Counted from the stretch's first letter, positions 1-64,000 are shown. The stretch is 64,000 nt of DNA from Amoebophrya sp. A120 (GCA_905178155.1 CAJINV010000008.1:1984001-2048000), one strand, 5' to 3'. Notes: generated by a model not told the origin, from the letters alone. Translations and numbers: made by a program.

Positions 1-1275
1 CTTCGCGCTCTGTCGCAAAAACACAGCTGTTTCTTGTGCAGTCAACCTCTTCAACTCGAAGAACCCTAAAATCATCGTCATCAACATCATCTTAGTTGCT
101 AGCATAGGCATAGGGGGGCTGCTCCTAGGGCTTTTGGAAACAATCAATTACTGTCTCACTCGATACCCTCACTCGTTCGATCTTCTCGATGTTCTTGAAA
201 ATGTCCAGCCCACTGCCCACTGTCGCCACTACCGAGCCGAACACCGCCCGCGCCCCCGATTCGATCGGGCTCTGCAGAACCAAGCCTGCGCAACTGGGCA
301 ACCTGCTCGCCAGGTCCGTGCTGGGCCCGGAGCCGATGGAGCGCCCGAACACGAAGATGCTCGACGGCTGAAACTATCAAATGCAAAAATGTCTGGGTCT
401 GGAAGAATGCAACTTGTGATGCTGAATTTGGATTCCAGAAAAATCTGTATTGCATGAGCAGCAAAGGGAATGCAATTTTTGCTACGTGGAGAGGGCATCT
501 GTCATGCGGAATAGGCATCGCGAAGCCCTCAAAAAATCTGTGATGGTAGGGCATGCATCACAGACATCACGGCCAATGCAAAACATGCGTGACAAGTCTC
601 GCAATCTTCCAGACCCAGACATTTTTGCAATTCATAGAAACTGCAGCTTCTCAGTCAGGTACTTGTACGCGGCGTTTACCGATCGATAGCACCCCTGTTC
701 GGTCGGCTCCCCGTCTGACAGCGAGTACCTTATCGATTCGTTTTCTTCCTTTCTGATTCTTCGATCGATCATCGGGAAAAAAGATCCGAACGTCTCCTGT
801 GGGGAAGATGAACATAGTCGTACTGAGACGGCACAAGGCTGAGCGGAAGCCTCAAGCAAAGAAAAATATGAACTCGTATGCTGTTGCCGGACTTGCCATC
901 TCATCGATTTTTGGCTAAGATGTTGAGCAAACACAACAACACGACTGCTCACAGGCGGTGGAACAACTATGCTCACACTTTGTACCCCTCATATTCGTAG
1001 GCAAAGACGGAACATTCGGTAATCTTCGTGAGCTCCTCCAGGTAGGGTATAGCCAGCCCCACGTCCTCGGCATTGCCGTGTGAGTAGAGGATCACAAAGT
1101 GCTCGCCGTCGTGCGCCCGGCGGGACCGCTCCTCGTTGTTCAGATACACCGCGAGGATGCGGTAATTTTTACTCGTTTTAAAGTACACCACCTGATCGCC
1201 GCGCTCTTCGAGAAAGGGCTGCGAATACCGCGGGTCCGGCGCCGGAAACGCCAGTTGATTCACTACGTTCCCCAT
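1..1275 (-). CDS. ABHD17-like alpha/beta hydrolase (depalmitoylase family), multi-exon, 3' end outside window
   Basis: MGNVVNQLAFPAP N-terminus, LYSHGNAEDVG, YEYEGYSLSDGEPTE, nucleophile elbow GRSIG, LVLQSP. Exons 1275-986, 728-637, 369-167; GT-AG intron 729-985; TIR intron at 375-636. Confidence 0.85.
375..636. mobile_element. Introner/MITE family A (non-canonical intron in ABHD17-like gene)
   Basis: About 32-bp TIR TATcAAaTGCAAAAATGTCTGGGTCTGGAAGA; perfect TSD GAAAC (370-374/637-641); excision gives LQFQPSSIFVFG. Confidence 0.92.
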
Positions 1276-1991
1276 AATCGCTGCTCCCGCGGTGAGCCTG
1301 CTCAGGAAGCAACTACGAACGGGACACCAACCACCTCAAGCAGGCGTGGAGACCCACGTCTTTTTGCGATCGGTTTGCGGGATAGCGATCCTTGACTTGC
1401 GGCAGAAATAAAAGTTCCATCTTCAACATCTTGTTATTTTGAAATAGAGTACGAACAAAGCTAACGCGGAAAAAAAAGCGAATGGATGTGAGATCGACAG
1501 GAGGATTTACTTCCTTATTTTCCAATCCGGATACTCTTCTAGCCTAATTGACAAACAACGAAACTTCTGAAGCAAGTGGCAAATGGCTACAACGCGGCAA
1601 GGTCACTGCACGAGCCAGGAGAAATTTTCACGAAACAGGAGCGGGTGCAACGCGTACATGTCAGGAACAGCTTACATCTTGATCAGCGCGCTTCTGTCGG
1701 GTTGTCAACACAAGAAGGCTGACTGAAAAATTACTGCTTTGATTTTCGCATGTACATTTTGGACACAGATGGCCTTTGTTTCACAGCAAGGGGCGTTGCT
1801 TTGCAAAATCCGTTCCTCGGAATCGAGACCAGTACGAGTGTGCGATAAATCAGAACTCGCCACTGGTCTCGAACTCGGCAGGTACGTTACTATAAACTCA
1901 TCGACCGTGTTAAAGATGATGAATCGTCGAGTCGCAACTTGGTTGCCGATCAGTGCTCGTCTCGTCGTGAAAAGGTCTACGCAGGCTTTTT

Positions 1992-6817
<4,826 letters not shown>

Positions 6818-11668: not shown

Positions 11669-13241
11669 TCACAGGCCACAGTACTCTCGTTTGATTTTCC
11701 CAGAGCGCAGCAGCGCGGGCGGGTGGAAGGTAAGCTGCTCCCCGGCTTCGATGTGCTCCACGCACCGGCCGGATATCCCCGTCACTGGCAGCCAGTTGCA
11801 CACATCCTCCACGGCGTATAACACTGCCTTCACGTGCTTCAGCGACCGATTGCGGATTTTGATCGGGTCCATCGCGTTTTTGGTGCCGTCCTGCGACGCT
11901 GTTCTCGACGTAGATGGAACGTTCAATTGCGGCAGAATTGTTCCCGTCCCCGCGGGCGGCCCGGCCGATGACGTAGTACCCTCAGAAGAAGTGCCGACTA
12001 TGCGAGATGAACCTCGTGCGCCCTCGCCGAGAGCCCCCGCAGTAGGGGTACTTCTAGAGACGGCACCCAGTTCGTCGTCGTCGGGTCTGTCAGCATGTGG
12101 TGGAGGCGCGAGCACCCCCTGTGCAAAAGGCAGGTAGTTCAGCTGTTGCGCTTTCGTCGAGGACATCGCCGGCGACAAAGGGATACTGATCGCGCCCTTC
12201 GAGGGCCCGCATCGCAGCGAGGTACTACCGCATCCTCGAGGACGGCCCGCCCCTCCAGAAAGCCTGCTACCATTGCTGGTCGGCGATAGTGCGCTATTGA
12301 TTTCCGCGATTTCGTTTTGCGGCAGGGTGGCGTTCATGGCCGCGGCGGTGCTCACGTCGGTCGCGGACACGCAACTAGCCGGGAACCACCAGGTAATTGC
12401 ATATTGAATGCCAATCATATGTCTCCGAGTCAGGAAGGTTTAACTTAGTGTAATATTTCATCAATCCGCGGCCGCCACCAAGCGGCACAAGTTTATTTTC
12501 AGCTGACAAGCAAGAGGATCAATCTGTGCGCCGTCGTCGTGCCTACGCGTCACAAAGTTCAGAATCATGTCAACAAACGCATGACAAGCGTTCTTGCAGC
12601 CTTCACCTCCTAGATGACCCAGAGGACACATGTCATGCAATGCATATTTCAAAATCCTCGAACATTTCGAGAGAGAAGACCCACTTGGCAAAACGGAACA
12701 GAACGAACGCCGTGGACTCCATCTCCTCGCGCTGCTCCGTTTCCGTGCAGACGTCAACCACGTAAAAACTGTTGTCGAACACGGCCTGGATCCGGTGCTT
12801 CCGGTTGTCCTCGGTGAAAAGGAAAATCTTGTACAAATACACCAAGATGGTGACCAGCATGGTGAGCGTGGCGAGAAGAAGGCAACCCGGAAGGAACTCT
12901 GGCACGTTGTCGTGTATCAAGTGGATGACGTTTTTCAGCCCGATCAGAAACAGCAGGATGAAGGCCGACACCGCAAAAAACGCTACAAAATTTGTGACGT
13001 AGTAAAATTTCTTCTTCAGAAACACGTGAACCGCGAGGAACAAGAGCACGAAGTAAAAAAAACCGCCCCACAGAAGTATCGTCGCGTTCGTGCCAATGCT
13101 GTAGGTCGCAAACGCGAGAAAAAAACCAATGGTGAGCCCCAGGACCGAAGTGAGGAAAGGCTGGCACAGTCGGGCGGATGGTAGCCGTTCCGTGAAGACG
13201 CGCTGGTCGCCACACATGTAGGCGCAAGTGTAAGACGCCAT
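11669..13241 (-). CDS. Hypothetical multi-pass membrane protein, 2 exons
   Basis: ORF 12633-13241 (about 4 hydrophobic helices) joins ORF 11669-12418 in frame (EDFEITWWFPA) after removal of the TIR element at 12402-12646. Confidence 0.7.
12402..12646. mobile_element. Aged family-A-like introner
   Basis: TAT...ATA ends, imperfect TIR, TSD TTGCA/TTTCA, frame-restoring excision of 250 nt. Confidence 0.75.
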
Positions 13242-14249: not shown

Positions 14250-17009
14250 CTACAATTCATCTTTCGGGGGCGCGGCGGCCACGGTGGCGGAAACTCCGGC
14301 TTTCGTACTTTCTTCCACCCGCAGCTCACAGTCAGACTTGTCGTCACAGGCTGTTGTCGGAGGGTCTTCTTCGTGCCAGGTCAGTTCCTCATCTTCCCCT
14401 CCGTTCAGGTCTCGCAACCGCTCCGCGAGAAACCTGCGGGCCTTCTGCCGCGACGTCCACTGGAAAATGACGTTTTCGTTCAACGTGAGCTGCACGCACT
14501 CGTCCTGCGGCCCGAACCCCGGTGGCCGGTCGGGCGACTTCTCGCTGGCCCCGAGGGTCGTGCTGTGCTTTTGGTGCACTGTGGCAGCAGCATGAGGATC
14601 CACCGTGTGGTCTTGTTCACCATCGTACTGGTCCCTCAGCCATACCAGCAGCCCGAGACTGCCGCCGAAGGGCGCCAGCACGCGCGTCGCGGTAATCGCC
14701 CCCATCTCCTCCACGACGCTGTAGTCCCGGGTGCAGTCGAAGTTGGTGAGCAAGGCTTCCTCGGGGTCGTTCCTCCGCTTCTCTTCTTCGCGTTTCGCGT
14801 CATCATGGATTTCTTTTATATCGTTCAACCCCACGTCCCGCACCTGCAGTTCCAAGGGCTTCAAAAAACTCCCCTGGAAGAACGACGCGGGGATTCTTGA
14901 TGAAGAACTCCCGTCGACACCACCGGCAGTAGGAGGAGTACGCGCGGCTTTATTCTCCTTTCCGCCGTCCAACGGGATTTCCGGGGCCTTCCAGGCGTAC
15001 ACCTGCAGCCACATGAGCACAGGCAAAATGGTTTCCGCATGGGCGAACGCAAAGCGAAACTTCTTCTCGTTGTTCGGCCCCAGTGAGAGGAAATAGGTCC
15101 ACTCCTGGAAGAAGTTCGCAGCAAACGGCTCCGCCGCCAAATTCGGGTTGCCAAACCCGCTTTTGTAAAAGTGCGCGTAGTCCATCAGCCGCTCCATCTG
15201 CAAGAAATCCGTTTCTTCCCCGAACACCTCGTCGCCCATGCATCCTGTGTGAAAACGTCTCCACCCCCGAGTTGTTTTATGCAAAGTGACATGTTGCCGA
15301 GAATGTTTCTACATGCCGCGCAAGAATCTCGTCATGCGGAGCAGTTTCTGATGCTATGATATGGGATCATCTTCTTGTCATCCTCTAATAGCGATAATGT
15401 GATGCGGCTGTACTAGGTAAACAGGACTACGCTGGGCGCCCATGGCTGTCACGCGCCGCAACAGCTAATAAACCCTATTGATTTCTTTGTGTAGCACCGC
15501 CGCGATCTCGACACTGCGGTGTGGGCGGCCCCATTTCCTTTTACACAGGATACCATGGCCGACTTATTCAGCAGTGCCCGTTCCATGATCGCAAGGTTCC
15601 AAAGAGCGTACGCGTCCGCCGTGGTGAGGTTCCACTTCGTGTGGAGATTGTTTGACGAGCTCTCTGATTGTTCGCCAGCAAAGAGCGTGACGTTCGGCAG
15701 GATGTGTTCGTCGAAATGCTTCTTGAACTCCCGCAGGTACTGCTTGTTTTTCCCCGGGCCGGTTTCCGTGTCGTTTTTCCAGCGCAGGTAGTCTTTGAGG
15801 TGCGCCGCCGTGTGGTATCGTAAGGAAAACTCCCCCCTCCCCATATTGAAAACGTATCTGTCTGAAAATTTGTGACCTCAAATCCTGTCTGTCTTGCAAG
15901 AAGGCAAGTCCAGAGCGCGCCGCGCACTTTCCAGGCGGTTTGTGATGCTGTTGGGCTTAGAGCATACACATTTGCCATGCTAGGCGCCTACGTCAAAACC
16001 TCTCGACTGAGGCTCCTTGGCATATGCCTGCAGTCCTCTCCAGCAAGACAAATCTGATTTGTGTACGGAAATCCAGCATCAGACACTTCGTTTCGGTATG
16101 GGGAGGGGGGATTTTTCCTTTTAATATGTGGACGCGGAATTCCGGGGCGGCGGCCGTGGCGTTCCAGCCGCCCGGCGGGACAATCACCATCTTCGAGCCG
16201 CGCCGCCCCAGCCGGGTCTTGAACCCGACGGTACTGGCGTCGAAGTACCGGAGCCGCTGGTCGTGCAGGGCCAAGACCCGGTCCTCGTGGGTTTTGCCGA
16301 AGGGGTTCTCGCCCAACGCGTCGTGGAGGCCGGCGAGGAAGGCGTTGCCGGACTGGGTGCAGCGCGACTTGGAGCTGCTCTCGTACTGCAGCCGCGTGCT
16401 GTTGTTCGCAAACGAAGACAGCAAAAAGCGCCACTTCAGCCCCTGCCGCGCGAGCTCCTCCCACCCGCGCTCCACCAGCGCGGCGTCCTGTTTCTCAAAT
16501 GCGGCGAGGTCCGTCTGTAGCCACCGGTCGGTCCGCCGGTGTCGTTCGGCGACATGCCGCTTCAGCTTCCGCCACTTGGTCAGCTTCTTGCCGTCCGGCG
16601 TGCGCGTGCCGTGGCGGAAGAGCACGTCCGCCGCCTGCAGGCGCCAGTTGAACCGGGAGTCACGCAGCGCATACGTTTTTTTGGTCGCATTCGCGTCAAC
16701 GGCGTGAAAGTACGAACTCTTTTCGGGCGGATGCGTGAACTTCCGCCCGTACGGATTGTACAGCGCTTCGTTGAAGTACGGCGTCTTGGTGCCGGCGTGG
16801 AACTGCCAGCTCCGCTTCGGGGCGCGGACCGACGCGGGCCTCCAGGACCGGCCATCTCTTGTCGGCTTTGCGTCCGTCGTTGGTGGTCCGCCAAACACCG
16901 ACCCGTACGCGAGGGCCCGCAGAAGAACTGCGGCCGAGGACCATCGCTGGGCACTTCCGCTTCCCGTCGTTCCGGTTTGCGATTTCGGTCTGGCGGGAGA
17001 CATTGGCAT
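14250..17009 (-). CDS. Histidine acid phosphatase, MINPP1/phytase-like, 3 exons
   Basis: Catalytic RHGTRTP motif, SSKSRCTQSG, FAHAET and APFGG motifs typical of MINPP; N-terminal hydrophobic segment; two TIR introns. Confidence 0.8.
15241..15552. mobile_element. Family-D-like introner in MINPP gene
   Basis: (C/T)ATCCTGTGT-AAA TIR; perfect TSD CCATG; excision gives KSAMGDEVF. Confidence 0.85.
15816..16126. mobile_element. Introner family B in MINPP gene
   Basis: TIR AAGGAAAA(C/A)TCCCCCCTCCCCATA; perfect TSD TGTGG; excision gives FRVHTAAHLKDY. Confidence 0.92.
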
Positions 17010-17663
17010 GGGTAGGCCTCACGCCTCGAACTAGAAATTAATATCAATATACTCGTTGCAAGATAGCCTGTCTTTAGGTAGCGAAGGAAGCAGCTAGGTT
17101 TACTTAGACGCTACCGATTGCTTTTCTTCCAGACTCTTGCACAATTGAGGCCCTTATCGAACTACAAGAAAAAACGCGCACTATATGCGATCGGGTGGAA
17201 GGTACGGCATGGCGGTGTGTTCGCTTGCAAGCGAAAGTATAGCGAATTTCGAATATCGACCGACTGCCTGGGGTGAGGATAGCGATGGGTGTTGCTGACG
17301 CCCGCCGGAAAAGTAGCAAGCCATTTATTTACGACCCGATTACGAAGTGCGACGCGATATTATTCTTGTCAACCATTTCTCGGAAGGGCGCCGGGCTCGC
17401 GATGCGTTTTTGCGCAAGGCAATCCCTGCAAGCGCGGCGCAGCGAACGGAGCGCGGCCAAGATGCAGCGCGGGAAAGCCGGCCGGCGAGAAAGAAAACGC
17501 GGGGCGTACCAGGTCGCGACGGACGCCCGGGGCCCGCACCAAAGCGGCAGCGGTACCGGCTTCCGTTCCCGTAGGCTCCTCCCTTCGGGGGCGTAGGCTA
17601 TTGCGCATCCAAGCGACTACGCTTATCGCCCGCCCCAAGTGGGCAGGCGTGCTGTGTTTCTAT

Positions 17664-17890
17664 GGGGCTAGGGAGGGGGAAAAGGGCCCACATGGAAACC
17701 GCGCAGGGGACAGCGGGAAAGGGCGGGGGGAGGGGGGGGAAGGGGGGCGGGTGGACGAGGGGGGGGGGAGTAACAGGGGGGAGGAATGAAGGGAGAGAAG
17801 AAGGGGCAGGGAAAGGGAAATGGGGGGGGGTTAGGCAGCAAAGGGAAGGGGGTAAGAAGGGGGAGGGATGGGGTGGAGGTGGAGGGTCGG
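17664..17890 (+). repeat. G/A-rich homopurine low-complexity tract (G-quadruplex/H-DNA potential) in the strand-switch region
   Basis: About 225 bp dominated by G and A with many G runs of 4 or more. Confidence 0.75.
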
Positions 17891-18009
17891 ATTTTCCAAA
17901 TGTGGAGCCTAATTAATAACATGCAACCCATGCGGCTTATAAATAGGCAAATACACCAACAACGCACCGTATAAAGTGCATGGGACACATTTTGTAGTGC
18001 GTAGCTGTG

Positions 18010-39000: not shown

Positions 39001-41148
39001 AGCGATGTCACTTCGTATTCACCGAGCACCATCGAAAGAATCAAAAACAAATTTAGGTTTGCGGAGATTTGCGTGGAAACCAAAAAGAAGGACGTAATCC
39101 AGGCCCGGGGTGTGGCCATGCAGTCCCTGACGTGGCGGGATGTAGTGGTCAAGCTGCTCTCCATATCCAGGAAAAAAAGTGTGTAAGTGTAACTTTCTTT
39201 GAGAAACAGCATCACAAATTTGCTCTACATGACAGATAAAACCTGTCACGCATGGCTTGTAAGGGAAAACACACATGAAGAGAGGACTTCATGGCTGTCT
39301 GGCATGACAGGTGTAATTCTGTTGCATGTTCTGCATTACACGCAGTTTTTTTCTTGCACACTCCAACGAAGCCCACCTGCCCATGAAGAAGCGGGTGCGG
39401 TACGTGGGGGAGCGAATCAAGTGGTTTTTCCAAACGCAGAAGGACGTCATCGTAGACTTCATGAAAAGCTTGAAAGGCAGCGCGGACGAGCACATGTATA
39501 GTTTTTTGTTCGTTGTGGAAAGATTCGAATTTTACCGTGTGTTGTTCCGCGCCTTTGATGCGATGTTTCTTTTTGCGTGACGAGTTTGTACTGCACTATC
39601 ATGAGGCGATAGAAGTAGGAAAGAGCGGGTACTAATAAAATTTTCACCTCCACGATCGCTACTCTCAGGTACTCAACGCTGTACTCGAAAACGGTCGCCA
39701 TCATCGAAAACAATGAGATGGTGAAGAACCTGGTTTACGAGACCTTCGACCGGGCGGTGGAGCGGCAATTGTCGCAGTTCATCGAGCTCTTCGACAACAC
39801 ACTGGCTTCGACCTTCAGCAACCCCTGGGTTTTCCTGAAGCGGGCGTCGACCCAGTTGGACGAAGGGTCCCTGGAGGACGTCTGTCTACCCAGCTTCGAG
39901 GACACCAAGGAAAGAATACCGTCGGAAATAGAGTCCCGTAGCGGAATCGATACTATTCTGCAGAAGTGGCTCGCGAGTACTTAGAATATAAGTCAATGAT
40001 TTGTTCAAAAGATAAAGATTGTAGAGGTTTTTACAAATTTCTTCTCCCTGGGTGCAGTTTGTACAAGCATGCGAAAAAGATAAACACGATCTTGCTCCTC
40101 CACCCAGAGCCAGAGCAAGAACCGGGAACAACACGTACATGACCGTAATCCGACATCAGCAAACGATTACTGTGTCTGTTCGTACATGTTTTAACAAGGT
40201 ATTCCGCAAGAGCCGTCGATGATTGACGATGCAGTGGACAAGGCCCAGATGCTGCTGCTGAAGACGTTCCAATTCATCCGCGCCCAGGTGGCGGACCAGA
40301 TCGAGCTCTTCGCGGAGAGTTTCTTCAAACTCCCCATGATGAGGCGTTTGGAGGAGGACATGGCCTCCATCGAGCTTTCCGATATGGACCGCGAGGGGCA
40401 TATGAATGTGTCAGGATCGAAATCGACAAAATCGAAAAATTTGTGATGCATAAAATGTAGGGCACTGGAGGCCTGTATTGGGGAGCAGGCAAATGAGGCC
40501 GATTGTAAGCCTGTTTAGGGGTGTGCAATGTGCTGCCAGAGTAGCATGACAGGAGCAGCCTTCTTTGCCCAAACAGCATGACAGACCGGATTTGAGTGCT
40601 CCCGAAATTTGTCATGCGCCACTTACAAACTGAGGCGCCAACTGGTATCGATTTTATGCATCGCAAGTTTTTCGATTTTGTCAATTTAGATTCTGGCCCT
40701 TCCATAGGGCACGCCGCGCGGCTGGAAGCGCTGCAGCTGGAGTTCGACACGGTGTGCCAGGAGTTCGACGCGGTGGGCGACAGTATCGAAAAGCTGCAGA
40801 CTATGGAACTGTCAGGATTGAAATCGTCAAAGTTGGAATAGTTTGTCATGCATAAAATGCAACGCAGAAAATGCCTGTCTTGCAGAGTAGGCAAGGAAGG
40901 CAGATTGTAAGCCTGTTTCGGGGTAGAAATAGAGCTGCTCAAGTAGCATGACAAAAGGCGTCTTCCTTACCCAAACAGCATTACAAACTGGATTGCGACT
41001 CTACTCAAATTTGTCATGCGTCGCTGAGAAGTTGGGCTTGCAACTGGTAACGATTTTATGCATTAACTTTGTCGATTTCAACTCTGACACATCCATACAG
41101 ACCTTCGCGCTGAAGGCACAGTCCAAGCTGCGGTCCAGGAAAAGGTGA
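36063..41148 (+). CDS. Dynamin-related GTPase (DRP5/ARC5-Dlp-like), 13 exons
   Basis: G1 GKQSVGKS, G2 GSRRPTVLE, G3 DLPGF, G4 NKLD; helical stalk and coiled C-terminus; six GT-AG and six TIR introns all join in frame to TGA at 41146-41148. Confidence 0.85.
36778..37084. mobile_element. Introner family C in dynamin gene
   Basis: TIR TATTACA(A/G)TGAAAAATGCCCCCACC; perfect TSD GCCTG; excision gives AIERLVTRFMED. Confidence 0.93.
37618..37820. mobile_element. Introner family G (aged) in dynamin gene
   Basis: TIR (T/C)ATCCCAGAG.AAAAA; same TIR as 51791-52000; TSD decayed; element+5 nt excision gives KMNDKDVQII. Confidence 0.75.
37974..38252. mobile_element. Introner family D in dynamin gene
   Basis: TIR TATCCTG.GTAAAAACGTCCCCAC.CCAGAG; perfect TSD GGAAA; excision gives KLREMKDSIQ; closely similar to 49409 and 58570 copies. 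Confidence 0.93.
39164..39360. mobile_element. Introner family H in dynamin gene
   Basis: Imperfect TIR TATCCAGGAAAAAAAGTG; perfect TSD CTCCA; excision gives KLLSNEAHLP. Confidence 0.85.
40401..40706. mobile_element. Introner family E in dynamin gene
   Basis: Long imperfect TIR (GACAAAATCGAAAAA.TTG.GATGCATAAAAT); perfect TSD GGGCA; excision gives REGHAARLE. Confidence 0.9.
40802..41097. mobile_element. Introner family E, second copy
   Basis: Homologous to 40401-40706; perfect TSD CAGAC; excision gives KLQTFALKAQ. Confidence 0.9.
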
Positions 41149-49322: not shown

Positions 49323-49877
49323 GACGACATCGTCATGACCAGGTAAGGAAGGATGGGATGGTGCAGGTGGTCGAGTCCGAAGTAAAGGTATAGCTGGATC
49401 GATCTGGTTATCCTGAGTAAAAACGTACCCACACCAGAGTCAGGTTGGGGATTTTGCAACACAATCCTAGGAGTTTTGTGAGTCATGCATGACAAGTTGC
49501 ACTTTGCAGTGTAGTGCAGGTTAGCAAGTGCAGCCGCATCACAGATTCGTCTGCTCATCCTGTTCACAGCATCACAAATTCCAAAACACGATTGGTAATG
49601 GCTCTCATGGGGATGCGCATTACAAGTCTTCCTCTCTTTGCAAATCTGCATTACAACTCTGGTGTGGTTACGTTTTTACTCAGGATACTGGTGTTCACAA
49701 TGCGTACATACGGATCGCGCGTGTGTGAAACAAGGGCAAAAACTCAAACCGTCGACGACCCTGGCATGACGATTGGATTTTTTCGACTCAATTCTATACG
49801 ACATCGACGTTGCTTCATCCCAAAGCGTGACCACAATTTTTTCAGGTGTCAATCAGTTCTTAAATGAAATTTTTCTG
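49323..49877 (+). pseudogene. Diverged duplicate of the CCT4 3' end and 3' flank
   Basis: 49323-49371 matches 47940-47988 (GACGACATCGTCATGACCAGGTAAGG..GGGATGGTGCAGGTGGT); about 49695-49877 aligns to about 48065-48237; interrupted by a family D element. Confidence 0.8.
49409..49687. mobile_element. Family D element in non-coding DNA
   Basis: 32-bp TIR with one mismatch (TATCCTGAGTAAAAACGTA.CCACACCAGAGT); perfect TSD CTGGT. Confidence 0.95.
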
Positions 49878-50593: not shown

Positions 50594-52607
50594 ATGACGG
50601 TCGAAAGCCGGGAGAAAGTTACCCCGGCCCGCCCGCGGTTAGGTGCTTCGACGCCGGAAGATAAGCCCACCGCCGCAACCACCGACTGGACCGCCGGCTG
50701 CTGGACCGCGCGGGTCCTTGAGAAGCCCGAAGTCCCCGTCCAGGAGACGAAGCAGAAGCAGTCCAACATCACCCGCAACAAGAACGACTACTACTGGATC
50801 CTGGGGTTCTACCTGCTGTTTTTCGTCCTCTCTCGGCTCCAGTGGCCCACGCACCTGAAAACCACCGTGCGCGATCGGGAGTACCTGATCGAGGAGATGA
50901 ACAGCCTGTCCGTGTTCGGTCCGTTACCGGACCCGCGAAACGGGGACTGGAACCAGCTCTGGTTCCTCTATTTCCTGCAGACCGCGCTCGCGATCCCGGT
51001 CGTCGTTGCGTGCACCTGGGTGGTGATGTTCGGGTACGACCGCGTCTGCGGATGTCGTGCCACTCGCGGGTCCACTACCACCGGTCCGACGCTCTTGTTC
51101 CAGCTGAAAACCATCGCGGTCAACTGCTGCCTGTTCCTGCCCCTGGCCGACACCCTCGCGGTGTACCTGGTGCACAAGGGCGCGTTCAAGACCTTTGTCC
51201 AGGACTGTCCGCACACCTATCAAAAGGAAAAATCCCCCCTCCCCATATCGAAAACGAAATTTGTGTTGCTGTATTTGTGTAAGAACTGCACGCAGATCGT
51301 AAGCCTAAGGAGGGGGGGGCTCTTGGTGTAGGGGCCTAGCATGGCAGGCGTCTGCCCTATAGGCCTTGCAGCATTACAAAGCGCCTGCATACCCTGGCGG
51401 AGTCTCTGAGTTTGCCCTCTTGCAAGAGAGACAGGATTTGTGGCCACAAATCAGCATCGCAAATCTTTAGAAACATAGACACTTCTTCAGTATGGGGAGG
51501 GGGGATTTTTCGTCTCAATAACACCGCGATGGACTTCTTCGGGGTTTTCTCTTTGAACCCGACGGACCACTTTTACGTCTACCACCTCCGGGACGCGCTG
51601 CTCTGGGCCCTGGGGTTCGAGCTGTGCTGGTACTTCCAGCACCGGGGGATGCACGACAACAAGTTCCTGTGGAAGTTCGGCCACGAGTATCACCACCAGT
51701 GGCGCAAGCCCGAGCACATGATGGGCGTCACCAACTTCGCGTTCGACCATGTGGTGGAGGTTTGGGTTACCATGAGCAGCAGTTTCATTGTACCACACAG
51801 AGAAAAAGCTGGCGTATCAGAGGACTTGTTGTATATGTGTGGAATACCATGAATAGAAGACAGGGCAGATGTTCCTTCGTCGATAGCATGTTGTTTGAGC
51901 TCATTTGCAATATACTTTTATACGAATTTTTGGCTTATAGTTGTTTTTGCATGTTGTAGTTGACAGCGCATCTGCTATGCTAGCTTTTTTCTCTGGGATA
52001 CATCCCGATGCTGTTCTTTCCCATCCATCTGTGGACCATGCGGATCGTGGGTTTTTTCTACATGATCCTCGCGGTGCTGGCCCACTGGGACGGGTTTGCC
52101 ATGCGGTACCACCTGAACCACCACTACTTGGTGGTGAAAAACTACGGTAGCCACGTGCCGATCTTCGACATGTTCTTCGGTACCTACCAGCCAAACTCGT
52201 TTTTTCCGACCTGCGAAAAGCACTGGTATCCGGGGTTCAAACCGGAAGGTCGAACGGGTATCAAATGTTGCAAAAATGTCTGGGTCTGGAAAGTCGCAAC
52301 TTGTCATGCCGTCTTCGGATTCGAAAAAAATTTGTGTTGCATGACCAGCAAGGGGAGTCGACTTTGTGCTACGCGGAGAGGGCATTTGTCATGCAGTATA
52401 CGCATCAGAAACAGCGAGCCCTCAAAAAGTCTGTGATGCTAGGGCATGCATCACAGACGTCATGGGTCATGCAAAATGTGCATGGCAAGTCTTGCACTAT
52501 TCCAGACCCAGACATATTTGCAATCCATAACGGGGGGAAACGACCAAAATGCGAACGACAAAGGCCAGGAGGGGACCACCAGGAAGGAGACTGCAAAGGA
52601 ACAATAA
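50594..52607 (+). CDS. Sterol desaturase / fatty-acid hydroxylase superfamily protein, 4 exons
   Basis: His boxes HRGMH, HEYHH, HLNHH followed by NYG..FDMFFGT; TM helices; all three introns are TIR elements. Confidence 0.88.
51218..51520. mobile_element. Introner family B in desaturase gene
   Basis: TIR GAAAAATCCCCCCTCCCCATA; perfect TSD ACACC; excision gives DCPHTAMDFF. Confidence 0.93.
51791..52000. mobile_element. Introner family G in desaturase gene
   Basis: TIR CAGAGAAAAAGCT.GC.TA.CAGA; TSD CATTG/CATCC; excision gives SSSFIPMLFFP. Confidence 0.8.
52259..52529. mobile_element. Introner family A in desaturase gene
   Basis: TIR TTGCAAA.ATGTCTGGGTCTGGAA; perfect TSD ACGGG; collinear with 375-636. 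Confidence 0.93.
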
Positions 52608-54133: not shown

Positions 54134-57100
54134 ATGTTGCGCGACGCGATGCCTTTTTTGGAAACCGAGGTGATGTTTGACGGACCTGAGAAGGCGGGGA
54201 AAGATGGTATCAATTTTTACAACCACGTCGGTGAAACGAAGACGCCGCACGATTTGTGGAAACAAGACAAACCGAAAAACAAGAAAGTGGTTGCTCGTTC
54301 CTCGCAGAAGTACGTGCTTGCCGCCTTTGCTGGAGTGGCCTTGTTCGACGCAGGTCCCGCGCGCGCTGCGTTTCAAGGAGGGGCTGGTCTAGGGCTTGTG
54401 GGCGGTGGAGGTGCTGGTGCTGCTGAGGATGCTATGCAAAACAAAATAATGAAAGCTACACTTTCAGAATTTGCATCATACCATGTGAAGAGCATAAGGA
54501 CAAGGAGTGAACAAGCTGCCATGTAAATTTACGACTGAATATTTGCATAAGAAGTAGCAGGACTCGATCTAGTGACATAAAAGTCTCACCACCCGGTGAC
54601 TTGGTGTTTGCGAATGTGCATTTTTACACATACCGATCTGATGTGCTAGCGCTAGCGTGCATGAAGTTCAACGAAAAGAAGTCGGAAAGATGGCCAGAAG
54701 CGGGCGCACAACTGCACAGAGCGGTTGGCGTTGAACAAGTCTAAGTTGCTTCAACATTCGCGACAATATCAGCATTGGAGGGCCTTGCAGAAGGAATTCT
54801 GAATGAAGAGATATATGACATCAGGCGTTGTTGCCATTGTGCTGATCTATGAGGCAAATCGTCGTGAAGTGCATAGGAATTGACTCAGCCCGTTGACTAT
54901 GCATCACTCCTGACGTGGTTGTGGCACAGACATGCAAGTGGCTTTTTTTCGTTCGATACGTGGGTACAACGCGCAGGCGCCTTCGTGTCTGAACCGGTAT
55001 GGTGCCATTGTGCGCAATCGGGCTAGTCCTCCAAGTATCAAAATGGTGAGCGACCAGACCACCCCGGAGAAGTTTGTATTGCAAGACTATAAAAATTCAC
55101 TCAGCCATGTTTGTATTGCAAAGCTATAATTCACCATTGCAAGATGGAAACAGATTGAGCATCTGCGCATGAAAATTACGCTTCTAAAGAGAGGGAAAGG
55201 AAGCACGCAGCTTTTGTCACTCTGCATCACAGACGCGTTCCGCCAGTCTGCATCCGATATAGGTCCTGTTGACGATACATGGAAACAAATACACTGCGTT
55301 GTTCTCTCTAGGGATAAAAGGGGCTCTTCTCACTTTGATACTGGGAACGTGGGATCCGTTACTTACAAACCCAGTTTCTGAAGAGGTTGCGGGGTGGAAT
55401 TCGGGAATTCCGTGGCACACGGTATGCATTGCTTCTGATATGTCTGGGTCTGGAAGGATACAGGAAACTTATATTGCACTGATTGTGGAGCAGACAGAAT
55501 CAAAAATCTTCTATCATGCATGAGATGACAGCTGCGAAGGCCGCTCTTCTGGGCTGACCCAAAGAGGAGATTTTGGGTTTTGTGCCGTGGACGGGATCGA
55601 AAAACATGCGCTTCCGCGAAACGAGTACTGCGTTGGCACGCACACATGCACCCGTCCTGTTACGGACCATCGTGGTCGCAGCTAGAGTAAGTATTCAAAA
55701 TGTGCATGGAAATAAAGTCGCCACTTTTCCAGACCCGGACGGCGTTTGCACTTTAGACGCGAGTGGCCCCTTATCGTCTTGCTACAATCATCGTGCTGCT
55801 GATGGCGAAGGTGCGGATGGGGCCGAAGTTGGAGCTTTCGCCACGTGGGCCAGTGGATTTTTTCAGCGGATGCACACAGTCGATATTGTGCGGGAATGCA
55901 ATTGCGAGTCGGGGTACTTTGGTTGTTCCCACTCCCTCTGCACAATGCCGAAGTGCACAACCTACGCGCCTCCACCACCTCCAGCAGCCTCGGCGGGCGG
56001 GTCGGATGGATCATCTTCCGGCGCGGGCGGTTTGCATCTGCCAGGAGGTGGTGGGGCGGCAGCGGGAGACGTGGCTGCCGCAGCTGCAGCACCGGGGACG
56101 CCCTGGTGCCAGGAGGTGAATACCCGGTATGAGGAATACAGGCAGCATCTTCACCAGGAGTACAACAGCCGGTCGTGCGGCATGGGCGAGTTGGCGCGCG
56201 GCCTCTTTAACAGTGGTCGGTACGGAATCGAAGCCACGGGTGCGGCCACTCTGGCCGTGACGATGGGCAGCGCCTACTTTACGGCTCTCGTTTTCGAGAC
56301 GATCACTTTGTTTGGCCGTGGCGCTAGCGCATACGTGGGGAACCGGGCCGAGCATCGCGCTCGGGCGATGCAGGGCGGGCAAATCGAACCGGTTGTCGAT
56401 CCGGCGGAATGGGTGGACGGTCCAGACGCCGTCCCCGGCGCACATCCGGTTGCCGGACCGGCGCCGACACCCAGCCTCGATGCGAGTGTGAACGAGATGG
56501 TGCGCTGGGTTGACTTCTTCCGCGAGCTAAAATGGCTTGCCGACAATGCCGTGCCGCTTGATTTGTACGAGGGAGATGAACATCAAGAGCTGCGACTGCG
56601 GGCTGCTCCGCGGGTCGTAAACATCAACGCCGGATCACCTGGTCGTCAACCTGCTCCTTCTACGGCCCCCGGATCACAACAAGAACGCCTGAATGCCCAT
56701 TTGTTCCAGAAGGTGATGGGCCCTGTACCGGAGGTCACGGCGGGCACGCAAAACCCGCGCGAGCTGGGCGGTCTCCTCACAGATGTGGAAAAAAATCGAC
56801 TGGAGAGCCTGCTGGTGTACAAGGAGCAGATGCCACGTGGAGCTCCGCGTCCGCGCTGGGGACGGGTGCGCAACGAATGGTCGCCGTGGGTTACCAGTTT
56901 CACGGACCGGTGGTTCTTCCGTAACGAGTTTCTGAACTCTGAGGCTCTGTGGCGAGAACTTCGGGACGAGCTCGCGCAACCGGACGCGGCGCTGGCGCTG
57001 CTGAATCCGCTGCGGCTTTTGCAGTACGACAGCAAGTTTTTGTGGCAGGGAGGGTTTGAGTACTCGCCTCAGGAACAAGCGACCTTCGGCCGGAAGTACC

Positions 57101-60100
57101 AGGTTCCGGAGCCGATAGCGCTGAAATTCGAGTTACTGCTGAAGGAAATCCCGAAACACCAGCCCGGAAGAGCGTTCTGGTACGTGCGGAAGACAAAGCA
57201 GTTCATCTCCAAGACCGACCCATCAGTACGCGAGCTCTGCGGCGAGTCGCCCGGAACCGCGCAGCCGGATAATCGTGACGAGCGTCAGTGTGTCCCGGTC
57301 CCCACCGCGGAGCAAGCACGGAAAACGCTGAACTTCTACCTGAACCGCGCGAACAAGTATCAAATGTAAAAATGTCTGGGTCTGGAAGAATTCATGTTTG
57401 TCATGCTTGTCTGGCATGATTCTTAAATCTGTCATGCACGTTACCCAAGCGCTCCGTTTTTTTGTGATGCAGAAGCGCAGTTTGTCATGCAGAATAGGCA
57501 ACACCTAGGAGCTCAGAAACTTGTCATGCTGAGCCAGCATTTGTAGCCTCATCATGAGACGCCACCCAGCATCACAAGTTTCCAGACCCAGACATTTTTA
57601 CTTTTGATAACAAGGGACGGGTGCTCAGCGTGTCGCTTCGTTTCGCTGCGGCGGAGCAGATGACCGCCAGGGGCGAAAATGAACAGTCGCGGCAACTGCT
57701 GCGCGACAACAGTCTTTACCAAGACGAAAAAAGCAAGCCCCCATAGAAGTATGTACTCCGATGCGACTTACTTATTTGTGCATCCGGTAAGTAACACATT
57801 CCCATTCAGGCGGACAAACGCCGGCCTGTTCGCGACATGGGTTAATAATTAATAGATGATGCGTTTATTCATGATCCTGGCATGACAGACTTGCTGACTG
57901 TGTGTAGGCAGAACAGATTTATATATTTTCTTGCCAAGAAAATGTGGCCGAGATGAATCAAAATCTACAACTGAGTAGTTGTAGACTGACACACAGATGA
58001 TAGTTGCGCTTGCGCGTTCTCGTCTTTGATATTGTGCAAGAGCGAGTCCATCATTGTGGTGTTTAGCAAGAAAAAATCCAATGACAGTGCATTACTTTGG
58101 GGCCGCGGCTTTTTTCATTCGGATGCTCGGCGCAGTCGTTTCATTTCGCGGGCTCTGGCAGCCTACGCCCGCATCTTCAAAGATAGTCTCGTCTTGCCTG
58201 CTGGGCGAGGTCGAGAACGCGTGGCTGAAGCCACTATGGACGCATTCGGCCAAGCGGTGCAGGACGGACGCGACGGGAAGGAAGAGAAATTATCCCATCG
58301 CCAGTGGTACTGTCCCATCACACTAGATTTGATTAAGGATCCGGTGGTACTCGGGATTGACTGGGAGAAGGGCGAAGACGGACATGGTTTTGTCCCCGGC
58401 CGTGTGGTGACGGTGAGACAGGGAGTTCGCCAGCTTAGAGCGGGTCTTGTCGCCGGTGCCCGGCGAGCAGTACTGCCCGGACGAAGAAGGGCGGACGATC
58501 ACGGGGCCGCTGGACCAAATGCGGAAGGTGGAGGTTGGGTGCCGCAACATATAAAGTTGCGGCCAAACATATCCTGAGTAAAAACGTACCCACACCAGAG
58601 TTGTAATGCAGATTTGCAAAGACAGGAAGACTTGTAATGCGCATCCCCATGAGAGCCATTTCCAATTGTGTTTTGGAATTTGTGATGCTGTGAACAGGAT
58701 GAGCAGATGAATCTGTGATGCGGCTGCACTTGCTAACCTGCACTACTACACTGCAGAGTGCAACTTGTCATGCGTGACTCACAAAACTCCTAGGTTTGTG
58801 TTGCAAAATCCCCATCCTGACTCTGGTGTGGGTACGTTTTTANAGATGAATCTGTGATGCGGCTGCACTTGCTAACCTGCACTACTACACTGCAGAGTGC
58901 AACTTGTCATGCGTGACTCACAAAACTCCTAGGTTTGTGTTGCAAAATCCCCATCCTGACTCTGGTGTGGGTACGTTTTTACTCAGGATAAAACGTCAGG
59001 CAGGTACAGGCCGGGCCAAATGGACGCCCACCCTTTGCGGTTCCGGCAACCAAGCACAGATACGTTTTTGAGCGCGCCGCCATTCAGCGTGTTATTAACG
59101 AAGCGGGGAACGGCGACGTATACCATCCGCTTAATAGAGAACATCTAGACCGCGATGGACGTGAGTTATACGAATACAAAGAGTTGAAGGACGAGATAAA
59201 CTACGTTGTTCGCGAGGGGCTGCGCGGTGCAAATGAGCACGATATTGTGAGGAAAAATTCTGCCTCCCTATACTCAAAAGAAATATTTGCAATGCTGAAG
59301 TGTGGCCACAACCCACAAGTCAGGTCTCTACTCCTGCTACCTGCTCTGTGTCCGAGTCCCATCTGTCATGGTCGGACACTTTCTACATTTTCGCATCACA
59401 AATTTCCGGTTTGCGTATGGGAGTGGGATTTTTTTCATTTTGATTCACGAGCGTGCCGCCAACGGCCAGGAGGCATTCAGGAAGTTGTTCACAGAACCAG
59501 AGTTCCTTATTGGTGCGACACGGTACAACGATCGCATCCAAGCGCTCCGCAACGAAGCAGCGCCGTCCGGGCGCAGTAGACCGACGCGTCTCACGAACGA
59601 GGAGAAGCGTGGCAGACACGAATTTCTCGCTGCTTCGCTGGTAGCCATGGGCGAGAGCATGGGGGGGCTGTGGCAGGCTGAGGATAGCGGAGCGCCGGCG
59701 CAAATGACGATGGAACAACGGCCAGCGCAAATTGAAGGCCACGGCCAGGAGCGGCTGAGCAACCTCCTGCGGCAGTCGGTCGACGGTCTGCGCGAGAAAG
59801 CTATGCATCGCAAATGTCCAACATCTCGAGGATCAGCGTCTGGGTTTCATCATGGAGCGTTTTCTCCAACCGATCGGATTTTTTGTATGGATACACTATG
59901 ATCCCATCATCGACATGCAGCAAATCTGCGTCATGAATGCAGAAAATATCTTGATCTCGTCTTTCTGGCATGATGCTTGGCGTAGCATAGCTTCTGTGTC
60001 TGTTTTGTACACCGAGCTTGTTGTACTGCTAAGTAGGTGAGAACAAGATGCAGTAGAAGTCAATAAGAGCCGCCTGGCAAGGGTTTTTTACATTTAAATG

Positions 60101-63100
60101 CCTTGTTGATCATGATCCTTATGGACTCGGGAAGCCCCTACTGTAGCGATGCAAATCGACGCCGGCCAAAATTTTGAATTCTGTATTATCGGCTCCGAGA
60201 TTTGTAGAAACCCAGAGAGCAGAACCACGAGTTTTATTGTGTTTGCGCGTGATACAGACACAACTCTTGCTCGAGAACGAAAATAACCCGCAACTACGCG
60301 AGCAGTTGATGGAAACACAGGTGCCCAGCATGGTGGACATTCAAAGTACGTTCGGCCGCAAATCAGTCGCGACAAGACTGGCAGAGTGCGCCGCTGCATG
60401 CGGGGACCGGCTGAACCCCACCGGCAGCAGGAGCTGGGACAACGTGGTCAACCAGGTGCCTGGATTTTCTAGAGCGCGACGACAAGAGCCGCTGTCCGAA
60501 GAAACGAGTAAGCAAGTCCTGGTGCTTGCGCTGACCCAGAAGCCACCGGTCGTGGACAGTACTGGCGCTGGCGGCGCGACAATGTCGGTGGTATGCCTTG
60601 CAAATTTCGATCTGGTGGGTCTGGAGAGTTCTGATGCTAGTTTGGTAAGTGTGGTAAAACGACCGTCAAAAAAGCTGTAGAAAAGTGTCAAGTACTATTT
60701 TTTTTTCATGATCTTCAATGGGTCTCCTGATAGTTGGGATGTGCAGATGAAAATACGTGCTGCACAAGCAAGTCGCGCTTGTTTTCCGAAGACGTGCTAG
60801 AGGTTAGACCTATGATTCAGACGAGTCGTATAGAAAATGTATATTCTTGAATGATTTTGATATTCTATTCCGATATTTCCAGTATTCTATACCCACCAGA
60901 TCGATATTTCCAGTCCATAAGTGGGCACCGGCACCAAAACGTGGTGGCAGTTCTCTGCGCTGGCCCGGTTAGACGCACAGCAGAGTTGGCTCGACCTTTT
61001 GAAGCGCGCGTCAACGAACCAGTTGAGACCAGACATCAACAAAAAGATCAAGGACCTACAAGGTCTCTACTTGCAGATTCCCGGGAATGTGTACTATGGC
61101 CACACGGACAACTGCTGCGAGAGTTTAGAAGGTGAAACCGTGACGGGGCAGCGGTTCTGCGGACCCTGCGGCGGCTGCTGCGCTTCGACTTGCACCAGGC
61201 TAGTGGACGGTGGTCTCTGCCAAGACATGGAGAGCTGCGCGAAATGCTGTCACTGGGGCGGCTGCTTCAACTTGAGTGGCGACCGTGCGCAGGGAAGCGG
61301 GGCCAATCTGGTGGAGATGCTCGTGTCTTCGATGGGGGATGCTGACGCCTTGAAGCAACGCGACAGGTTTTCGTTGGAGGATCTCGTGCTGCAGACTTAT
61401 GAAAACTTCGAAAACCGCATGCAGAGGCAGACTTCCGAAACGAGAAGGAACATGTTTGGCAACAAGACCGAGGAGACCGGTTATCCTGCAGAAAAACGCA
61501 CCCACACCAGAGACAGAGTTGTATATTGTATATATGTATGTATGCCACCCAGAATAAATATCTCTCACGCGGCGGTCCCATGAGTGGCATTGTGTAGCCG
61601 TTTTTGGATGGAAGCCACTTCTTGTGCTGTGTATAAAAATCAGCAGAGAGTGGAAGAACAAGTCGATCCGCCGTGCTGCGGCTTTTACTAGCTAGGCACG
61701 ACTGCCTCATCTCCAAACTTGTCATGCGGAGCTCGCGGAACCTCTGGACTTTTCTAATAAACCTTATATCTTGCCTAAGGGATCGTGGGTGCGTTGTTTT
61801 TACACAGGACACCGTTGGAGACCAGTGTTGCGACACTTGCTGTGAATGGATCGGCCGGCCGCGTGCTCGTATTGCCAATCCGCAGGAACTGCACACGATG
61901 GACATGCCGCTAAGTCACGGAAGTTTGCGCAGTCGCAGGCTAGAGCCACACGCCGAGGCGTGTGCCAGATGTGATCAGTGTTGGGCGCACTGCTGGGGCA
62001 AGACGTGCTGCCGGGACATTGTCGGCAACTGCTGCTTCCGCAATTGTCCGGGACAGGTACTGGACGGCTGCGTCGGTTGCGCTTCAACGGCGTGCAACGC
62101 GACCCGTACCGGGTACCGAGCGGCCCGTTCTTGGGCCGGCCGGGGGCCCTGCATCCGCGGGTCCGGCGCTTTGGGTTGCCGTCTGTGTGATAGTGCTGGC
62201 AGAGCCGGGTTGCATTTCTGCGAGCAAGGAGTTTTCTCCGTGCTCGGGGCCCTGGCGTACATCACGGGCGTGGGTGTCACCTACGCTGGGCAGTCATGCG
62301 AGCTCATGGGGAGGGGGGCCGGGTACTGCTGCTGCAACGTCTGCAGGCAGGCGCAATTGATTGGACAAGGCTGTGTGCGGGCGGGTGCGTGCGTTGGCAA
62401 GGAGTGTGTGAAGTGCGGCGTCTCGGCAGGCAGGACGGCCACGGCCGTCGCGGTCGGCGGATCCAGTGCCCCGCCCTATCAACTGCAAAAATGTGTGGGT
62501 CTGGAAGATTGCCAGGTTTGTCATGCATATTTTGAATGACCCATGATGTCTGTGATGCATGCCCTATCATCACAGATTTTAAGAACAATTTGTGATGCCT
62601 CTACCGCATGAGAAATGCCCTCTCCGCGTAGCACAAACTGGAGCCCTCCTGCTGGTCATGCAACACAAATTTTTTTAGAATCCAGAGACAGCATTACTTC
62701 CAGACCCAGACATATTTGCAATGCATACGCCCCAACAGCAGACCATGAACGACGGTGGCGCGCAAGCGACATCAGGGGCGCCCTCGCAGCAGACCGACGA
62801 TTGGGGACTTCGGCCGGACGAACAGCCCGGCTGTTGGCCCTGCGTATGGAGTTCTCGCCACATCGAATGGACGGGGCGACCGAGCACGCCGGCAGCCGAG
62901 GCGCCAAACGGCTCGGCCGTCGTTTCGGGACTGAAGGAATGTGGACGAAAATGGTGCCCGGCCGGAGTTCTCGGAAGCTGTTGCTGTCCTGCCGTCGCTT
63001 GTTCGGCCGCGGTTCTTGCTGATGGTTCCAACCTATCCTATTGAAAATTGCTTTCGCGCCCTCGTCCTCCCCCAAGAAGAAGACAAGTTTATTTCACTTC

Positions 63101-64000
63101 GTATGTAATCGAAGATGATCGATGTTGTTCTCGGATTATAATATCTAGGCTGTCGAGCTGGTGTTGACAGGCCATTTTTTGAAACTGCGACACGGGAGGT
63201 AAGTACTTCGCTCTCGCTCACATTGCGTAGGAGTGACAGCTTGTATACTTACTCCAGAGGGCAACATCATGCAGGACATACAGCTGCAAGGACTTTATTT
63301 TCCAATCCTCGAGAACAGCGGCTGTTACGTGTTGCAGTTACTAAATCTGCTTGCCATGCGATGAATATCTTCAAAGTGTTTTTTCCAGTGGGTGGTGGCC
63401 GGGGGATGCGCCTTTCTTTTCGATACACCCTTGCTCTACGCATCGGAAACGGGGCGATGGCCTTCGCCGGGACGAGCCTGCTTGTGCTGCTGAAAGGGCT
63501 TCTTGGTCTGGTAGACGTGATGTCCAGGATCTTGTGGCCGCTGACGAAGTTTGCCAAACTGCTGCTAACTGCTCTCTGGGTGGTCATCGAATTATTTGTG
63601 GAGCTTATCAAGGACGGCGGACGTGGACTCGTGTCCATTTTGACGAAGGCGTACGCCGTACTGTTGAAGGGCTTCGTCTTTGCCTGGAATTATCTCGCCG
63701 CTCCTGCCGCACAGTTTATGCATTGCAAATATGTCTGGGTCTGGGACGAGAGCAGGGCGCGACTTGGACCGTCGCATTCACATGTTCCTGAATTCTGTAA
63801 TGCATGCTGGGGAACGGGCGCACCGCAGCCGCAGGAGCACTGCTTCTGCTTCTGTGTCTCTGTCGTGACGCAAAATCGCAGTTTTTATTCATTTATCATG
63901 CGCGTTATTTAGATTTACCGAGCGATTGCTTGAAAAAAAATTGTCATGCGTAGGCACGTGGTACGGCAGTCAGTTTTTTATCCAGGTGTGAGGGGAACGA
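54134..64000 (+). CDS. Giant multi-exon protein with split U-box-like domain, Cys-rich regions and TM helices (3' end outside window)
   Basis: ORFs 55269, 55573, 58026, 59184, 59302, 60174, 60921, 61673, 62721 and 63223 join in frame on removing TIR element+5 nt at each gap; WYCPITLDLIKDPVV...RYVFERAAIQRVI..YHPLNREHL is U-box-like; linkage of 54134-55035 is weaker. Confidence 0.6.
55423..55757. mobile_element. Aged family A introner
   Basis: ATGTCTGGGTCTGGAA / TTCCAGACCCGGAC TIR core; decayed TSD CACGG/CGCGA; element+5 excision joins ORFs 55269 and 55573. Confidence 0.75.
57358..57609. mobile_element. Introner family A
   Basis: TIR TATCAAA.GTAAAAATGTCTGGGTCTGGAA; perfect TSD ACAAG. Confidence 0.92.
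57717..58125. mobile_element. Highly aged putative introner
   Basis: Imperfect TIR (GAAAAAAGC..GCCCCA), internal GCATGACAG, element+5 (414 nt) excision keeps frame (NSLRSRFISR); TSD poorly preserved. Confidence 0.5.
58570..58990. mobile_element. Introner family D (reverse orientation; contains 138-bp assembly duplication around N at 58843)
   Basis: TIR TATCCTGAGTAAAAACGTACCCACACCAGAGT; TSD AAACA/AAACG; interrupts the U-box coding region. Confidence 0.9.
59243..59445. mobile_element. Shortened family-B-like introner
   Basis: Degenerate family B TIR and TGTGGCCACAA core; perfect TSD CACGA; excision gives NEHERAANGQ. Confidence 0.8.
59802..60254. mobile_element. Aged introner with GC...AG-compatible boundaries
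   Basis: About 47-bp imperfect TIR (TAT..CGCAAA..CTCG.GG.TC.GC.TCTGGGTTTC); 458-nt removal (59800-60257, GC-AG) keeps frame. Confidence 0.7.
60592..60919. mobile_element. Introner (TIR core TCGATCTGGTGGGT)
   Basis: TAT...ATA ends, TSD GGTGG/AGTGG, excision gives TMSVGTGTKTWW. Confidence 0.85.
61482..61811. mobile_element. Aged family-D-like introner
   Basis: Left TIR TATCCTGCAGAAAAACGCACCCACACCAGAG; right GTGGGTGCGTT..CAGGACA; TSD CCGGT/CCGTT; in-frame junction EETGGDQCC. Confidence 0.78.
62477..62727. mobile_element. Introner family A (reverse orientation relative to 52259)
   Basis: Family A TIR; perfect TSD CGCCC; excision gives SSAPPQQQTMND. Confidence 0.92.
63034..63425. mobile_element. 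Aged introner
   Basis: TATC...GATA ends, weak TIR, TSD CAACC/CACCC, in-frame junction DGSNLALRIG. Confidence 0.65.
63717..64000. mobile_element. Family A introner, right end probably beyond window
   Basis: Left TIR TATGCATTGCAAATATGTCTGGGTCTGG; internal TTGTCATGCG; no right TIR in window. Confidence 0.65.

Follow-up and report, generated by a model that had tools for sequence, protein, structure and literature searches.

A motif shared by the introner families of Amoebophrya sp. A120, a candidate subterminal binding site for a mobilizing protein

Introners have been described in Amoebophrya sp. A120, and this report concerns those in one 64,000-nt stretch of its DNA (CAJINV010000008.1:1984001-2048000), called the window here, together with a short motif, TGT[CGA]ATGC or its complement GCAT[GCT]ACA, that recurs inside them. 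In the published sections considered here, an A120 introner has TAT, seven variable bases and then A's (PMC7789003); it is a non-canonical intron with short direct repeats, has no open reading frame (ORF) and is 150-320 nt long (PMC7789003; PMC12130899). The same sections of the genome paper report that neither U1 small nuclear RNA (snRNA) nor a transposase was found in A120; they favor copy-and-paste movement and stem-loops and argue against a general mobilization by transposases (PMC7789003). The portion of PMC12130899 considered describes one A120 family with terminal inverted repeats (TIRs) and a Copia-integrase-like ORF, and its supplement 8 lists most families as TIR DNA elements of unknown superfamily (32 of the 58 A120 rows).

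We consider it likely that the motif is a subterminal binding site, in double-stranded DNA, for the protein that mobilizes the introners and that it is not a mark for splicing. The basis for this view is the enrichment of the motif in the elements, its sharing among families, its conservation and spacing, the lack of a strand bias and the equal constraint inside and outside of genes. The elements themselves are already known. The published text, as far as it is considered here, speaks of terminal repeats only and names neither an internal motif common to families nor any rule of spacing or phase. Relative to that text, figures excluded, the motif grammar is new. No description of a shared internal motif was found in this literature, whose figures may mention one, and GTCATGC has no match in 14 supplement files of PMC12130899, files that may hold no element sequence.

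Identity of the elements and their removal from mRNA

The elements of the window, with their TAT...ATA ends and 5-bp duplications, fit the published A120 introners, which they resemble in the TAT with seven variable bases and an A-run, in the direct repeats and in length. The source of the DNA agrees with this: a protein labelled Amoebophrya sp. A120 matches an alanyl-tRNA synthetase exon of the window at 100% identity, and one labelled A25 matches it at 88%. All three marks of these introners, the tip, the direct repeat and a removal from mRNA that does not follow GT-AG, were found. In the logo of 678 ends A has a frequency of 0.87-0.93 at bases 11-13 (the TA[T/C] was demanded by the element finder); when families are weighted, the A frequency is 0.62-0.92 at bases 11-15, and families E, L and N deviate.

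With regard to removal, an RNA-like contig skips 33949-34086, i.e., 138 nt made up of a family F element and one 5-nt repeat, and it also skips GT-AG introns. Fifteen of the 195 joints were viewed, the type of run is a guess, and RNA-read support concerns this one element; two raw RNA runs, identically labelled, contributed a single read each, which is uninformative. Excising the family F element at 3582..3728, which lies in an intron of the alanyl-tRNA synthetase gene (minus strand; cores at 3616-, 3651+ and 3682+), together with 5 nt restores the annotated protein P0001, whereas 3, 4, 6 or 7 nt fail. Likewise, all 87 junctions with separately called flanks are in frame once the element and 5 nt are removed, according to a self-trained coding model. 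Summed contig depth over element bins was 8,500-78,000, as compared with an even coverage of about 45 for the window in the same run; these values are not copy numbers, and they indicate that the families are abundant.

The motif, its conservation and its spacing

The window has 73 exact matches to the motif (41 TGT[CGA]ATGC and 32 GCAT[GCT]ACA), while 6.3 are expected under a first-order Markov model (maximum of 12 across 30 runs). Sixty-two of the 73 lie inside 24 TIR elements, which were mapped via their 5-bp flanking repeats and cover 6,676 nt (9.3 per kb). The remaining 11 are distributed over the other 57,324 nt (0.19 per kb), so that the enrichment in the elements is 48-fold, and six of the 11 are within decayed or unpaired elements. 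The 27 GT-AG introns of the window (5,193 nt, delimited by hand with approximate edges) have no exact match and five weak matrix matches, versus 93 in the elements. A blind k-mer count gave GCATCACA and GCATGACA as 8-mers common to most families. Four aged elements of the window, at 37618, 51791, 55423 and 60592, have no exact motif.

These counts agree with the sequence-only reading, which had claimed that the motif is repeated inside element families and, by eye, rare in the GT-AG introns of CCT4 and RBM8A and had proposed k-mer enrichment as a check. Every instance that it quoted, in elements of families D (37974), E (40401), A (57358) and F (3582), is present in the element named. Other parts of its description need revision. 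The 8-mer is enriched as claimed, but the true motif is longer, about AA(T/C)(T/C)TGT[ACG][AT]TGC with the next base mostly A (61 consensus sites), and at the fifth core position either A or T occurs. Families B, C and H were also said to have the motif; B carries it, but the elements that we letter H (37618 and 51791) do not, and the two letterings may differ. Finally, the families were called unrelated. With the motif masked, the interiors of 59 of the 66 family pairs do not align above shuffles, but seven pairs do (B/E strongly; K/N, I/M, E/N, D/K, K/L and A/D more weakly), and all families share the tip and the 5-bp duplication. Common descent therefore accounts for part of the sharing, although not for the conservation described below. 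In B/E, K/N and I/M the TIRs differ but the interiors are common, and identical tip 4-mers recur across families, which suggests that ends have been swapped.

The families were defined in a wider set of copies. A scan of public contigs with the family A TIR gave at least 164 loci (489 kb); all of the 77 listed are JACKZZ01 contigs. These loci have families in common with the window, with identities of up to 96%, and no single-copy DNA in common with it. An element finder that was blind to the motif, and that required a TA[T/C] tip and at least four matches in the 5-bp flanking repeat, yielded 339 elements, 324 from the public contigs and 15 from the window. The flanking repeat is perfect in 285 of them and 4/5 in the other 54, the duplications have no clear sequence bias, and the finder gave no false positives in 239,525 nt of Markov control. 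The 339 elements form 12 families of at least three copies (323 copies) plus 16 singletons. The exact motif is present in all 12 families, in 314 of the 323 family copies and in 14 of the 16 singletons.

The core of the motif is conserved like the TIRs. Conservation is 0.93 in core columns, compared with 0.76 across the remaining interior columns and 0.77 where the same trinucleotides occur outside the core, and the excess holds in each of eight families (p < 1e-5 each). In the trees of these eight families, core and TIR both evolve on internal branches at 0.25 of the rate of the interior, and base-matched rates agree. On terminal branches the ratio for the core is 0.41. Judging from the mismatches between target-site duplications (TSDs), the change accumulated after insertion is 0.016 per site or more; the core rate seen on terminal branches is 0.037 +/- 0.002, where neutral decay predicts 0.034 and continued constraint 0.022. 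After insertion, then, the motif decays about neutrally.

The arrangement of the sites is also regular. Each end has the common tip (TAT, seven variable bases and the A-tract), then bases 16-30, which are family-specific and conserved, and then the shared motif. Consensus elements of the families have two to seven sites; one is 32-63 bp from each end in every family, and most families have further internal ones. Among same-strand neighbors in the consensus sequences, a spacing of 31-33 bp occurs in 15 of 23 cases from eight families, and none of 5,000 random placements was as clustered. Of the 29 inverted pairs of neighbors, 10 are spaced by 15-17 bp and seven by 45-50 bp. First sites that point inward stand at 32-33, 40-44 and 52-55 bp from the end, and at a period of 10.5 bp they are in phase (R 0.73, p 0.0014, 11 values; R 0.88, p 0.004, with one value for each of six homology groups). 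When any period of 8-16 is allowed, p is 0.008 for the 11 values and 0.029 for the six groups. In family A the right end alternates between 33 (41 copies) and 41-42 (71 copies). The idea that the tip is itself a degenerate copy of the motif was rejected, as one of 24 consensus ends scores near a site.

Some copies carry insertions of their own. By length, 115 are +3 and 31 are +6, compared with 52 of +1, 21 of +2, 19 of +4 and 11 of +5. Of the +3 insertions, 71 are a 2-bp duplication plus one base (24.8 expected), the extra base not being the end base of the element; 20 of the +6 insertions are 5- or 6-bp duplications (0.3 expected). Both kinds could be footprints left by excision or staggered breaks that were repaired, and their lengths would preserve a reading frame despite their location in non-coding DNA. 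At CpG columns, terminal-branch change is 0.165 in strictly non-coding copies and 0.106 in coding copies, a small sample and possibly an effect of methylation. Three longer elements, L024:367-1470 (1,104 nt), L032:632-1465 (834 nt) and L066:3862-4492 (631 nt), have motif arrays near their ends and unrelated cargo, which includes purine-rich short repeats in the first; no long ORF is present in any of the three.

Readings of the motif

We suggest that a mobilizing protein, either a transposase or a shared cofactor, would bind the motif as a double-stranded word. Several copies of the protein would line up along the same side of the helix and assist in pairing the two ends, and the element would then be excised or copied and inserted with a 5-bp duplication. 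An element with damaged sites would no longer spread, so that selection would act through the ability to spread, and this would explain the conservation of the motif. The inserted copy would be removed from mRNA together with one duplication, apparently without a requirement for the motif. Judging from the rates, the sites may, as in subterminal repeats of the hAT type, be bound by the DNA-binding domain of a transposase and be needed for transposition. The contrast between a common motif and the conserved, family-specific bases 16-30 makes a shared cofactor roughly as plausible as a transposase. The sequence-only reading had offered the motif as a binding site either for a transposase or for a factor that marks the intron for excision. 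The data favor the first part, through the conservation on transposing lineages, the spacing and the phasing of sites to the ends; the second lacks support, for the reasons given in the next paragraph. It had also named, as grounds for refuting it, an equal frequency of the motif elsewhere or mere descent; the frequency contrast and the constraint on internal branches argue otherwise, although the near-neutral decay after insertion and some shared descent are real.

We think it improbable that the motif marks the element for removal from pre-mRNA, either as RNA or as DNA during transcription, and so offsets the missing U1 snRNA. The published failure to detect U1 and the absence of the motif from the GT-AG introns would suit such a mark, and 179 of 180 coding copies retain at least one site. 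Of the 339 copies, a self-trained Markov model with a local strand vote classed 180 as coding and 69 as non-coding, while 68 were ambiguous and 22 lay too close to an end; this model replaced a first, weakly trained model without the vote, which gave 54 frame agreements in 100. A splicing enhancer should have a fixed polarity in the transcript and extra constraint in genes, and neither was found. In the 180 coding copies the motif points one way 349 times and the other way 327 times, so there is no transcript strand bias; by family, the sense/antisense counts are 7/5 in D, where the exact sites share one polarity, 14/8 in F and 5/8 in I. Coding copies have a terminal core ratio of 0.37, non-coding copies one of 0.38 and the strictly non-coding copies one of 0.36 (Fisher p 0.41; the last set has 33 elements, 29 of them within the eight tree families), and the better conservation in aged coding copies that the sequence-only reading had tied to a splicing role was not seen. 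Both end sites are intact in 0.62 of the coding and 0.62 of the non-coding copies. The near-neutral decay after insertion also speaks against such a mark, as do the four aged elements of the window without the motif, whose reading frame opens on their removal (their splicing is judged here from the frame). Thus, the motif appears not to be needed for splicing.

Equally doubtful is a role in base pairing, in which inverted copies would fold into hairpins, as RNA or as single-stranded DNA, for a copy-and-paste intermediate. The inverted neighbors at 15-17 nt and the published preference for copy-and-paste and stem-loops would be in keeping with it, as would the strong motif-motif pairing predicted in families A, B, E and K. 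However, complementarity would suffice for pairing, and yet one fixed word is found in all 12 families. The commonest arrangement is the direct repeat at 31-33 bp, and the sites of family D are mostly unpaired with each other in the folding predictions and have no partner. The variable base is mismatched in 44% of the short inverted pairs and in 67% of the end pairs; it matches between the two end sites at 0.33 (135 copies) compared with 0.45 after shuffling, so that end sites are not matched beyond chance and pairing is not what is kept. It is very improbable that the motif has no function and is left over from a common ancestor and from tandem duplication of a unit of about 32 bp, because, despite the seven family pairs with common interiors and the sites of family F that stand 31 bp apart and by eye resemble a tandem duplication, the four-fold lower change on internal branches largely refutes this, most pairs have no alignable interior and the spacing is preserved while the spacer sequences differ.

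Several observations weigh against a DNA-binding site for a mobilizing protein. In inverted pairs that are 14-18 nt apart, the two variable bases agree slightly more often than after shuffling (0.56 of 68, versus 0.46), and the folding predictions named above pair many sites with each other. A copy-private insertion destroys a motif in three coding copies (7.3 expected), which hints at constraint within genes without reaching significance; in non-coding copies the numbers are 1 and 1.7, and overall 7 and 11.5 over 202 events, again not significant. The coding and non-coding labels come from a Markov model, and non-coding copies may sit in untranslated regions. Ties in the parsimony reconstruction shift changes to the branch tips, and, owing to the use of its TIR as bait, family A supplies half of the copies (167). 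The phase test used 6-11 consensus values that we picked and that span three helical turns, and end sites that point outward (34, 37, 42, 44, 45 and 47) have no tidy phase. Finally, to the published report of no transposase in A120 can be added that no transposase or integrase family was found by Pfam among 106 long ORFs from about 0.55 Mb of sequence (106 of 122 ORFs of at least 250 aa; the 16 omitted are overlapping or antisense frames). There was also no autonomous partner among TIR pairs up to 12 kb apart, the longest pair being 1,104 nt without a long ORF. Viral contigs had no family A TIR; a two-site pattern occurred there at three loci from two distinct sequences without a motif array and was taken as chance.

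Going further, one may speculate that a single host-encoded or domesticated DNA-binding protein reads the motif on all of the introner families and drives their spread without family-specific transposases, the breaks healing as frame-keeping +3 and +6 scars. We give this a small chance of being correct; if true, one intron-making machine would be behind tens of thousands of introns and would also speed protein evolution. A binding site read by the mobilizing protein would show a way for very different element families to share one mobilizer. Since the motif is apparently not needed for splicing, mobility and splicing become separable problems, and a motif that is common to all sampled families, phased at the ends and kept only during spread could serve as bait in a pull-down of the mobilizing protein.

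Elements of the window and known transposon ends

Elements of family A are at 375..636 (5/5 TSD; cores at 415+, 446+, 500+ and 555-), 52259..52529 (52302+, 52333+, 52387+, 52432+ and 52448-), 57358..57609 (57399+, 57430+, 57463+, 57483+, 57522+ and 57569-) and, in reverse orientation, 62477..62727 (62519+, 62551+, 62591+ and 62660-). Related to A are those at 24603..24987 (24649+, 24776+ and 24935-), 28764..28999 (28851-, 28890- and 28936-), 63717..64000 (63796+ and 63942+; its right end was not found in the window) and the aged 55423..55757, with no intact motif. The element at 24603-24987 is in the first of two tandem paralogous genes (24240-25300 and 26060-26630) and not in the second, which provides an empty-site control. 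Family B is present at 4114..4435 in alanyl-tRNA synthetase (4158+, 4191+, 4291-, 4342- and 4374-), 15816..16126 (15890+, 15941+ and 16043-) and 51218..51520 (51262+ and 51371-), and a decayed B-like element with an uncertain left end at 59271..59445 (59393-).

Family D occurs at 37974..38252, where the five cores have a single polarity (38021-, 38052-, 38101-, 38182- and 38213-), at 49409..49687, where no coding DNA is predicted (the six cores run from 49456- to 49648-), and, in reverse orientation, at 58570..58990; the last has an N at 58843 together with a duplication of 138 nt, which probably arose in the assembly, and supplies two of the 62 matches inside elements. Aged D-like elements are at 15241..15552 (5/5 TSD; 15398+) and 61482..61811 (61720+). 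The D copy at 49409 stands between second copies of two short pieces of the CCT4 end and 3' region, which lie about 1.4 kb downstream of the first copies and have 84-94% identity to them (47936-48235 and 49320-49872). The two family E elements are at 40401..40706 (40442+, 40544-, 40576- and 40610+) and 40802..41097 (40844+, 40876+, 40946-, 40978- and 41012+), a second family F element, the one skipped in the RNA-like contig, is at 33954..34086 (33996- and 34046+), and family I is at 39164..39360 (39209-, 39302- and 39333-). A dynamin-like gene contains a family G element at 36778..37084 (36821+, 36870-, 36905+ and 36938+) and an aged one without intact motif at 37618..37820. Intact motifs are also absent from the aged element at 51791..52000 and from that at 60592..60919, in a predicted coding frame. 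A decayed element with uncertain ends is at 12394..12660 (12579- and 12631+), and a further one, outside the 24 counted, at 55036..55340 (55075+, 55112+ and 55224-). Two other regions differ in composition: 17200-19600, a gene strand switch with G-runs, an AT-rich and a GC-rich block and no motif match, and 30300-32300, which has a GC of 0.64-0.65, short repeats and nil depth in the RNA-like run at 30671-32004.

The motif may resemble the ApiAP2 word TGCATGCA and the RBFOX word UGCAUG, although the variable fourth base argues against the latter. Among transposons, three comparisons can be made. The first is with the hAT elements, which have subterminal repeats in both orientations, such as the Hermes repeats that are bound by BED domains (PMC10368747). 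The introners also have short repeats inward of both ends, in both orientations and asymmetric between the ends; they differ in having a longer word that is shared across families with differing TIRs. The target duplication of hAT elements is 8 bp, as opposed to 5 bp here.

The second comparison is with Tn7-like ends, in which TnsB sites have a 10-bp periodic spacing and the host factor IHF takes part (PMC10201428). The introners likewise have several sites at each end with a helical-pitch spacing, although the independent families are few, and a host factor that different systems have in common offers a precedent. Tn7-like elements make a 5-bp duplication, as introners do. Ends of the Tn7/Mu type have TG...CA termini and a terminal site that resembles the internal ones, whereas introner ends are TAT...ATA, their tip is not a copy of an internal site, and the elements are eukaryotic and spliced. 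The third comparison is with Ginger elements, whose ends are TGTNR and most of which have 4-bp, sequence-biased duplications, while those of TDD-4/5 are 5 bp (PMC2836005). Ginger1 and Ginger2/Tdd are TIR elements whose autonomous partners would carry an integrase-like DDE transposase, and TDD-4/5 agree with the introners in duplication length. The A120 TIR family with a Copia-integrase-like ORF (PMC12130899) is a further point in common; the TAT ends of the introners are not TGTNR, and their 5-bp duplications lack a clear bias. In conclusion, although the ends of the introners do not fit those of the hAT, Tn7-type or Ginger groups, their shared motif is real and functional-looking, and it appears to act like subterminal repeats.

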